64,000 nt of DNA, from IMG/VR virus record IMGVR_UViG_3300045988_044066, one strand, 5' to 3'. This document shows, piece by piece, positions 41,512 through 41,594 of the stretch; position 1 is the first letter of the stretch; every line of letters starts with the position of its first letter. This DNA is from a virus. Made by a program: the position numbers and the translations under genes. A model generated the notes under the pieces. The model saw only the letters and a list, made by a program, of their open reading frames with translations, did not search any database and was not told where the DNA came from.

Positions 41512-41594
41512 AGCCGACTGTCAGATTCGAACTGACGTGGAGTTTCCTCTCGTGATTACAAGTCACGTGCAATCAACCACTATGCGAAGTCGGC
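41512..41594 (-). tRNA. class-II-bodied tRNA with UGU (Thr) anticodon (isotype uncertain)
   Basis: Acceptor GCCGACT/AGTCGGC. 3-bp D-stem. Anticodon arm CGTGA-CTTGTAA-TCACG. 14-nt variable arm AGAGGAAACTCCAC. T-arm GTCAG-TTCGAAT-CTGAC. Confidence 0.55.

Follow-up and report, generated by a model that had tools for sequence, protein, structure and literature searches.

A tRNA-Thr(UGU) with a long variable arm from an uncultivated gut phage belongs to a widespread family and is probably a faithful threonine decoder

Introduction

Textbooks and reviews of transfer RNAs (tRNAs) restrict long variable arms in bacteria to the tRNAs for Leu, Ser, Tyr and selenocysteine (Sec) (PMC4033280, PMC7954030). 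The window analyzed here, the whole 64,000-nucleotide stretch of the IMG/VR virus record IMGVR_UViG_3300045988_044066, carries an 83-nucleotide (nt) tRNA gene that combines such an arm with the threonine anticodon UGU. Which amino acid would this tRNA bring to ACA codons? An earlier interpretation of the letters alone (the sequence-only reading) had described the body as Ser/Leu-type and had considered serylation with miscoding of ACN codons, with an unusual tRNA-Thr as the fallback. We analyzed the gene, its close relatives and tRNAs of the same shape in phages and bacteria. From its sequence features, the gene is probably (at roughly 85%) a faithful Thr decoder from a widespread long-arm family. 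Taken alone, the gene is nothing exceptional; what is unexpected is the family behind it.

Results

The gene forms a cloverleaf with an additional helix

ARAGORN calls a tRNA-Thr(tgt) at positions 41511-41594 of the minus strand, and the Rfam model RF00005 matches positions 41512-41594 with 57.8 bits (gathering score, 29; E = 7e-10 over the whole window). The RNA reads GCCGACU UC GCA-UAGUGGUUGAU-UGC A CGUGA CUUGUAA UCACG A-GAG-GAAA-CUC-CAC GUCAG UUCGAAU CUGAC AGUCGGC U and displays the elements of an RF00005 cloverleaf, namely a 7-base-pair (bp) acceptor stem, a D-arm, a 7-nt anticodon loop with U33 and a T-arm with GUUCGAAUC, in a 7/5 acceptor/T geometry. A U13:U22 mismatch is found at the D-stem, and CCA is not encoded, U73 being directly followed by C-G-A. 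The Rfam alignment places the surplus nucleotides with high posterior probability as an insertion in the variable region. The variable arm is composed of one unpaired nucleotide, a 3-bp stem (41547-41549/41540-41542), a GAAA tetraloop and a 3-nt 3' tail whose last nucleotide is C48, and its GAG/CUC hairpin with the GAAA loop was recovered by single-sequence minimum free energy (MFE) folding. With a 14-nt stem-loop arm and a 3-bp D-stem, the gene does not have a class I body with a variable loop of 4-5 nt; since it is 83 nt long, such a fold does not fit, and neither ARAGORN nor Rfam offered a class I fold, an intron or another fold for it. The class II shape with a UGU anticodon in the sequence-only reading is thus borne out in all its elements, and the better alternative fold with a normal variable loop that was named as a possible refutation did not emerge.

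Close relatives were found in IMG/VR by means of an exact 26-nt probe. Fifteen related contigs carry the gene order tRNA-Asp/tRNA-Thr, which is conserved wherever the sequence reaches. The Thr gene is identical in 14 of them and differs by a single change (C9 to U) in one, while the anticodon is UGU in 15/15. Together with the presence of a separate, normal tRNA-Ser(UGA) gene in the window (Table 1), this eliminates a sequencing variant of tRNA-Ser(UGA), which had also been raised. A recent origin from this tRNA-Ser(UGA) was considered as well and rejected, as the D-arm alone is similar and the rest differs. The best cellular match to the tRNA is 75%, and blastn against E. coli genomes returned no match.

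The long-arm tRNA-Thr(UGU) is a large and covarying family

Viral contigs were scanned with the degenerate pattern TTGTAATC, 19-26 nt, GTTCGAATC, which can be satisfied only by a UGU tRNA with a long variable region. At least 120 viral loci matched, with at least 114 UGU tRNAs of at least 80 nt according to ARAGORN, at least 78 of which are distinct; all counts out of 78 refer to the matches listed. G1-C72 is present in 76/78 and C2-G71 in 77/78 sequences, and position 3:70 is C-G or U-A in all. The discriminator is mostly U73 (65/78) or A73 (11/78), the D-arm is 17 nt long with a 3-bp stem in 67/78, and CCA is encoded in 29/78. The variable region comprises 12-18 nt and usually has 1 nt before a stem of 3-4 bp, which closes a GNRA-like loop and is followed by a tail of 3-4 nt.

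Covariation was determined in an alignment of 39 sequences with the two commonest layouts. The cloverleaf and the variable stem were 98.4% paired, compared to 27-45% for controls with slid pairing partners. The variable stem itself was 95.7% paired, with double-sided changes in 18-23 of the 39 sequences at each of its three pairs. The D-stem was fully paired (100%), again with both sides changed at each of its three pairs, and the tertiary 15:48 position was likewise 100% paired (G:C in 34, A:U in 5 sequences). Covariation and 15:48 pairing together indicate that the variable arm is a selected helix in a normally folded L-shape. When the scan was opened to short or long spacing, 21 long and 94 short forms were obtained among the matches listed (120 loci), i.e., about 1 in 6 of the viral UGU tRNAs fitting the search motif among these matches is of the long form. 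The window gene is an ordinary member of this large, covarying family.

The family also occurs in cultured phages. Among deposited phage genomes, 115 match a long-arm sequence taken from an isolate-derived contig; they are mostly of T5-like Salmonella and Escherichia phages and include Aeromonas phage Ah1 and a Synechococcus phage, and the gene is annotated in them as a plain tRNA-Thr. A long-arm tRNA-Thr is also present in the Pseudomonas jumbo phage HPP-Temi (PP968062). Directly after it, at 16377-16464, this phage has a gene annotated as tRNA-Phe (87-88 nt), whose variable region is long and whose anticodon AAA is set in a loop CGAAAAG that lacks U33; it is possibly a tRNA-like RNA.

The acceptor stem and the anticodon are those of a threonine tRNA

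All seven acceptor pairs (GCCGACU/AGUCGGC) and the anticodon loop CUUGUAA of the window tRNA are identical to those of E. coli thrU, the reference sequence of which was confirmed in 5,420 genomes; the 30:40 and 31:39 pairs and the 7/5 geometry are shared, too. In contrast, thrU has a D-stem of 4 bp with an 8-nt loop and a variable loop of 5 nt, where the window tRNA has 3 bp with an 11-nt loop and a 14-nt arm. Threonine identity resides in acceptor-stem pairs and the anticodon, while position 73 is of little weight (PMC9976931), and the window tRNA has the features read by threonyl-tRNA synthetase (ThrRS), G1-C72, C2-G71 and the anticodon U34 G35 U36. Bacterial tRNA-Ser has conserved G1-C72 and G2-C71 pairs, and C2-G71 is an antideterminant against E. 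coli seryl-tRNA synthetase (SerRS), which ignores the anticodon (PMC9976931).

As an internal control, 1,222 phage tRNAs were tabulated by class. The long-arm UGU tRNAs have G-C at 1:72 (75/77), C-G at 2:71 (76/77), C-G or U-A at 3:70 and U73 (64/77), and short phage Thr tRNAs have G-C at 1:72 (25/25), C-G at 2:71 (24/25), mostly C-G or U-A at 3:70 and U73 (21/25). Phage Ser tRNAs have mostly G-C at 1:72, G-C at 2:71 (44/45), A-U at 3:70 (39/45), and G73 (33/45) or U73 (9/45). A73 is invariant in phage Leu (49/49) and Tyr (18/18) tRNAs. The window tRNA, with C2-G71 and C3-G70, lacks the Ser acceptor features G2-C71/A3-U70, and with U73 and UGU it has neither the A73 of Tyr and Leu tRNAs nor the GUA anticodon of Tyr.

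The variable arm was compared in the same manner. In long-arm Thr tRNAs, the stem has 3 bp in 56/70 and is followed by 3-4 unpaired 3' nucleotides in 45/70; in phage Tyr tRNAs, it has 3 bp in 15/19 and 3 unpaired 3' nucleotides in 10/19. Phage Ser tRNAs have arms of 16-21 nt with a 4-6-bp stem in 42/48 and a single unpaired 3' nucleotide in 36/48. The window tRNA, with its 3-bp stem and 3-nt 3' tail, does not have a Ser-type arm, and its variable-arm geometry is Tyr-like, not Ser-like. The Ser/Leu-type label given to the body is thus right in part, the body being of class II but Tyr-like in its arm.

ACA is used where threonine is meant

ACA accounts for 195 of the 722 Thr codons (27%) in 45 open reading frames (ORFs) of the window. 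Two conserved window proteins were aligned with nine distant phage homologues. At ACA (17 codons), the homologues have Thr in 36% and Ser in 10%, and at ACT (37 codons) in 33% and 8%, respectively. The Ser codons gave the reverse picture, with Thr in 5% and Ser in 50% at TCN (41 codons) and 7% and 44% at AGY (22 codons). The homologue residues at ACA columns indicate that the phage writes ACA where threonine is meant. A Ser-inserting ACA decoder would be harmful to the phage.

The window tRNA is thus predicted to be functional and to read ACA and ACG, and possibly more codons depending on the modification of U34. It would be cut from a long minus-strand transcript of the tRNA array and receive its CCA post-transcriptionally. 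Charging would be performed by the host ThrRS via G1-C72, C2-G71, G35 and U36, and during infection the tRNA would supply ACA decoding.

Long-arm tRNA-Thr(UGU) genes apparently reside in bacterial chromosomes

A scan of prokaryotes with the same pattern, each species being represented by one genome, showed at least 40 loci with genuine long-arm tRNA-Thr(UGU) genes (40/120 among the matches listed). In Spirosoma, the gene is identical in most matched genomes and is the lone tRNA of each locus (4 loci noted). In Eremiobacterota (4 loci noted), it adjoins a Tyr-Gly-Thr(GGU) cluster on the opposite strand. Further lineages with the gene are Kiritimatiellia (3 loci noted), Acetobacteraceae and Verrucomicrobia. 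The neighbors of the bacterial copies are ordinary chromosomal genes, either cysS and an rlmB-like methylase, as in Eremiobacterota, or amylase and amidase, and the Eremiobacterota copies are chromosomal and not part of a prophage. The classical thrU-tyrU-glyT-thrT-tufB context was considered for Eremiobacterota and discarded, as the long-arm gene lies on the opposite strand and a tuf gene was not found. A non-threonine identity is hard to square with an ACA decoder residing in the chromosomes of organisms annotated with the standard code, and the ordinary chromosomal settings imply a routine translational role.

One further locus, the 6.9-kb contig CAMNDS010000043 binned into a Clostridia metagenome-assembled genome, contains 12 tRNAs, among them long-arm forms for Thr and Trp. 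It looks like a phage tRNA array that was mis-binned into a bacterial genome.

Alternative explanations

Judging from its determinants, there is only a small chance of any mischarging at all of the window tRNA. The tRNA could have a dual identity, being mainly threonylated and partly mischarged with Ser, or with Leu or Tyr in the A73 subgroup, which would lead to low-level ambiguous decoding of ACA. Such an identity finds a basis in the class II features of the body, in a T5-like subgroup with A73 and A15:U48, which are Leu identity elements in E. coli (PMC9976931), and in nev-tRNAs as a precedent for mischarged class II bodies (PMC3333845). However, the window tRNA has U73 and G15:C48, lacks the Leu and Tyr discriminators as well as the Ser acceptor determinants, and belongs to a family in which the Thr determinants are under strong purifying conservation. 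Moreover, ThrRS edits Ser-tRNA-Thr. We therefore regard a dual identity as very unlikely.

A non-decoding role, either as a decoy or competitive inhibitor of a host tRNA-targeting nuclease or toxin or as a tRNA-like element such as an integration site, would be in line with the retained cleavage site UAAUCA of the nuclease AriB, discussed below. This role appears highly improbable, given that the family keeps the 7/5 geometry, the 15:48 pair and, in part, an encoded CCA, that the gene provides the sole Thr tRNA of a 28-tRNA array resembling a decoding set, and that cellular lineages retain the long-arm form as a chromosomal gene.

Missense decoding, in which SerRS reads the long arm and Ser is inserted at ACA or ACN codons, was considered in the sequence-only reading. 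The long variable arm and the 3-bp D-stem are indeed there, the D-arm resembles that of the window tRNA-Ser(UGA), U73 occurs in that tRNA and in some phage Ser tRNAs, and the indifference of SerRS to the anticodon would permit it. This is outweighed by the documented anti-SerRS element C2-G71 in place of the near-universal G2-C71, by C3-G70 instead of A3-U70 and by the shorter arm with its short stem and 3-nt tail. In addition, the Thr determinants are the very features conserved across the 78 variants, ACA is found at Thr-conserved positions, and bacteria keep the long-arm form as a resident gene. Missense decoding is accordingly hardly to be expected, and the fallback of an unusual tRNA-Thr is what the findings favor, given the thrU-like acceptor and anticodon loop and the Thr signature across the family. 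A pseudogene or prediction artefact, to which the single-sequence fold, only modestly more stable than shuffles (z = -1.59), might point, is effectively refuted by the Rfam score, the 15 near-identical relatives and the overwhelming covariation in 39 diverse homologues.

Several points weigh against a faithful Thr decoder. ThrRS is a class II synthetase that approaches the tRNA from the variable-arm side, and its tolerance of a 14-nt arm is assumed. The recognition rules for ThrRS and SerRS are extrapolated from E. coli and T. thermophilus and may not be those of the host. The census is biased in that the pattern fixed UUGUAAUC and GUUCGAAUC, and the conservation of the anticodon and the T-loop is by construction. 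Finally, U73 is common to the window tRNA-Thr(UGU) and tRNA-Ser(UGA), and Mukai et al. treated the combination of an extended variable arm with G73 or U73 as Ser-like (PMC5389517). Because U73 is found in the window tRNA-Ser(UGA) and is counted as Ser-compatible in that study, it does not discriminate between Thr and Ser.

Phage alleles and the PARIS nuclease AriB

In E. coli, a prime target of the PARIS nuclease AriB is tRNA-Thr(UGU); the nuclease cuts the site U36-A-A-U-C-A41 between positions 40 and 41 and makes additional D-loop contacts; the T5 tRNAs for Lys, Thr and Asn jointly neutralize PARIS (PMC12409363). At one locus and behind a common upstream flank, T5-like phages were found to carry either of two tRNA-Thr(UGU) alleles, one of 75 nt and class I shape (~349 records) and one of 87 nt with the long arm (~100 records). 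T5 carries the former (NC_005859 28667-28741), and Bas33, i.e., phage HildyBeyeler (NC_105119), carries the latter. Bas33 encodes tRNA-Thr(UGU) without a tRNA-Lys(UUU), and T5 tRNA-Lys alone rescues it from PARIS (PMC12409363). The variable arm is not mentioned in that paper, in which the word "variable" is absent. The Bas33 genetics are indirect evidence that the long-arm tRNA-Thr works in translation and withstands AriB.

The T5 short allele is changed at the AriB site (U39 to G), whereas the long-arm forms including that of the window have an unchanged UAAUCA and a different body. With its class II body, the phage ACA decoder may be a poor substrate for host nucleases of the AriB type. Evasion would then be by shape, through a helix protruding beside the 40/41 site and a remodelled D-arm, with an unchanged cleavage-site sequence. 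By analogy with the PARIS system, such an anti-nuclease rationale for the long-arm form in phages is a tentative proposal that is rather unlikely to be correct. The window tRNA is of the isoacceptor that AriB cleaves in E. coli, and the host of the window phage may differ. The proposal is weakened by the finding that the window tRNA does not have a site of the AriB-resistant type, its U36-A-A-U-C-A41 being identical to that of thrU, together with U16. It is further weakened by the long-arm form being resident in bacteria, where an anti-defence rationale fails.

The window also encodes tRNA-Asn(GUU) and tRNA-Lys(UUU), with UAAGCC (G39, as in T5 tRNA-Thr) and UAAUCU (U41), respectively, at the AriB-equivalent sites. 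According to the Rfam alignment, both are otherwise canonical class I tRNAs. A Sec-like 7-bp D-stem suggested for the tRNA-Lys(UUU) by its MFE fold was dismissed, as the Rfam alignment gives an ordinary 4-bp D-arm; accordingly, a remodelling of all three AriB-target isoacceptors in the window phage is not claimed.

A class II-shaped scaffold in other class I tRNAs

The viral loci of the family also hold long-arm tRNAs with Asn, Cys, Lys, Gly, Glu, Met, Pro, Val, His and Trp anticodons as called by ARAGORN, some of which are possible over-calls; the two that were inspected, from Bas33 and Erwinia phage IT22, are convincing. Asn(GUU), likewise an AriB target (PMC12409363), is represented by at least 12 distinct long-arm tRNAs in viral loci. 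That of Bas33 (NC_105119 73550-73635) has 86 nt, a variable arm A-UCC-GCAA-GGA-UAAA and an Asn-type G73. In the 87-nt tRNA-Trp(CCA) of Erwinia phage IT22 (OP586623 63724-63810), the D-arm, the variable arm and the T-stem approximately match those of the T5-like long-arm Thr tRNA, and the acceptor is of the Trp type (A1-U72, G2-C71, G3-C70, G73). The acceptors of these two tRNAs indicate that the identity elements follow the anticodon and not the body. It is conceivable, though doubtful, that a modular scaffold of class II shape serves class I amino acids in phages and a few bacterial lineages, chiefly Thr(UGU) but also Asn, Trp, Lys, Cys and Gly, and that in phages this scaffold has been selected as refractory to anticodon-stem nucleases such as AriB.

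Genomic setting

The source of the window is a large uncultivated human-gut phage. Every window gene is on the minus strand, and the G+C content is ~38%. Among the ORF products are an anaerobic ribonucleotide reductase (NrdD), a helicase and an exonuclease as well as members of several PHROG families. By tblastn, the NrdD has 100% identity to that of MT835470, an unannotated 117-kb human-faecal "Bacteriophage sp." scaffold that abuts the window start; the remaining protein relatives of the window share at most 50% amino-acid identity. The beginning of MT835470 appears to overlap positions 1-4600 of the window, and the tRNA array is not on this scaffold. A megablast search of the 3-kb neighborhood against deposited phages gave no match.

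Of the 29 tRNA calls that ARAGORN made within the window, 28 are on the minus strand and one is on the plus strand. The array comprises 28 tRNAs, with tRNA-Thr(UGU) as the sole Thr tRNA and the remainder resembling a decoding set. The gene lies 58 nt downstream of tRNA-Asp(GUC), and promoter and terminator scans near it gave no signal above chance. The coordinates are summarized in Table 1.

The window also encodes a transfer-messenger RNA (tmRNA) and a tRNA with the anticodon CUA. The latter, labeled "Pyl" by ARAGORN (Rfam tRNA model, 62.7 bits), is a potential amber suppressor; the stop codons of 45 long window ORFs are TAA in 28, TGA in 12 and TAG in 5 cases. The tmRNA, not called by ARAGORN, matches Rfam RF00023 with 83.7 bits over the full model span, stretched by large insertions to 556 nt. 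A RAGATH-34 RNA, detected with 120.9 bits against a gathering score of 60.7, lies between the tRNA array and the tmRNA.

Three further tRNA calls are unusual. A 75-nt class I-shaped tRNA called Leu(CAA) has no long variable arm and is thus the mirror of the long-arm Thr tRNA. Its anticodon arm can be drawn with a 6-bp stem and a 5-nt loop UCAAU or with a loop GUCAAUC with U37, and an exact copy was absent from all loci retrieved. A weak call of an Arg(GCG) tRNA (44.2 bits), the MFE anticodon arm of which has a 7-bp stem and a 3-nt loop, may represent a degenerate or tRNA-like gene. The plus-strand tRNA-Arg(tcg) called by ARAGORN overlaps the minus-strand tRNA-Ser(GCU), recurs in most related contigs covering the region and is almost certainly an antisense false positive.

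Table 1. Positions of the tRNA-Thr(UGU) gene, its structural elements and other RNA genes or calls in the window.
Feature	Position	Strand	Basis or remark
tRNA-Thr(UGU) gene, G1 to discriminator U73, 83 nt	41512..41594	-	ARAGORN, Rfam, sequence
Acceptor stem, 5' strand GCCGACU, pairing with AGUCGGC at 41513-41519	41588..41594	-	7 bp, including G1-C72, C2-G71, C3-G70
D-arm GCA-UAGUGGUUGAU-UGC, 3-bp stem, 11-nt loop, G18 G19, G15	41569..41585	-	sequence
Anticodon arm CGUGA-CUUGUAA-UCACG, perfect 5-bp stem	41551..41567	-	sequence
Anticodon UGU	41558-41560	-	sequence; positions 36-41 are UAAUCA
Variable arm A-GAG-GAAA-CUC-CAC, 14 nt	41537..41550	-	MFE fold
T-arm GUCAG-UUCGAAU-CUGAC	41520..41536	-	sequence; Rfam alignment
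Discriminator U73	41512	-	sequence
tRNA-Asp(GUC), upstream neighbor	41652..41725	-	ARAGORN
tRNA-Arg(tcg) call	43715-43791	+	ARAGORN
tRNA-Ser(GCU)	43730-43818	-	
tRNA-Ser(UGA)	49243-49329		
tRNA-Asn(GUU)	49529-49603	-	
tRNA-Lys(UUU)	50028-50099	-	
CUA-anticodon tRNA	51704-51776	-	ARAGORN, Rfam
tRNA-Leu(CAA) call	53857-53931	-	
RAGATH-34 RNA	56060-56167	-	
tmRNA	58043-58598	-	Rfam RF00023
tRNA-Arg(GCG) call	59168-59239	-	

Discussion

The body of the window tRNA is reminiscent of bacterial tRNA-Tyr, tRNA-Ser and tRNA-Leu in its long variable arm, the 3-bp D-stem and G18G19 with 20a/20b insertions, and its variable arm shares the layout of phage tRNA-Tyr (1 nt, 3 bp, loop and a 3-4-nt 3' tail). 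It differs from bacterial tRNA-Tyr in the Thr anticodon, U73 instead of A73 and the Thr acceptor determinants, and from tRNA-Ser in that the latter has longer stems, a single unpaired 3' nucleotide and G2-C71/A3-U70.

Class II bodies with the anticodon of a class I amino acid, as seen here, are known from nev-tRNAs and nov-tRNAs. nev-tRNAs retain recognition elements of the Leu type, and in vitro they are misacylated with Leu (Hamashima et al., 2012; PMC3333845); nov-tRNAs are noncanonical tRNAs containing a variable arm in nematodes and other eukaryotes (Hamashima, Tomita and Kanai, 2016, as cited in PMC7954030). In contrast to these eukaryotic nuclear genes, the window tRNA is a phage gene with a Thr-type acceptor, and its family is found in phages and bacteria. 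Since its acceptor identity matches its anticodon, faithful decoding is expected, the opposite of the leucylation of nev-tRNAs by their body. The allo-tRNAs (Mukai et al., 2017; PMC5389517) are similar in being bacterial or phage-borne and in having a long variable arm, non-Ser anticodons and U73 or G73. They differ in their 8/4 or 9/3 acceptor/T geometry, their Sec-like D-arm and the Ser-accepting role inferred for them, compared with 7/5 and a Thr-type acceptor in the window tRNA. With the anti-PARIS tRNAs of T5 (Lys, Thr and Asn; PMC11464382, PMC12409363), the window tRNA has in common the Thr(UGU) isoacceptor in a phage tRNA array, but T5 tRNA-Thr, at 75 nt, is altered at the cleavage site (U39 to G), while the long-arm form keeps UAAUCA in a different body. 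A full-text literature search, which covered few subscription journals, brought up no published account of a tRNA-Thr with a class II shape from phages or bacteria.

For tRNA biology, it comes as a surprise that a Thr tRNA with a covarying long arm is common in phages and also resides in several bacterial lineages. Such a tRNA provides a natural test case for the handling of a class II body by ThrRS, EF-Tu, the ribosome and modification enzymes, and it cautions against inferring codon reassignment from tRNA shape alone. If the modular scaffold were in fact selected for nuclease resistance as proposed above, this would constitute a second, general route of tRNA-based counter-defence, and a long variable arm would be shown to be acceptable to ThrRS and other synthetases for class I tRNAs. 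Whether tRNA-cleaving immunity is evaded by shape could be tested in the tractable E. coli T5/Bas33-PARIS system.

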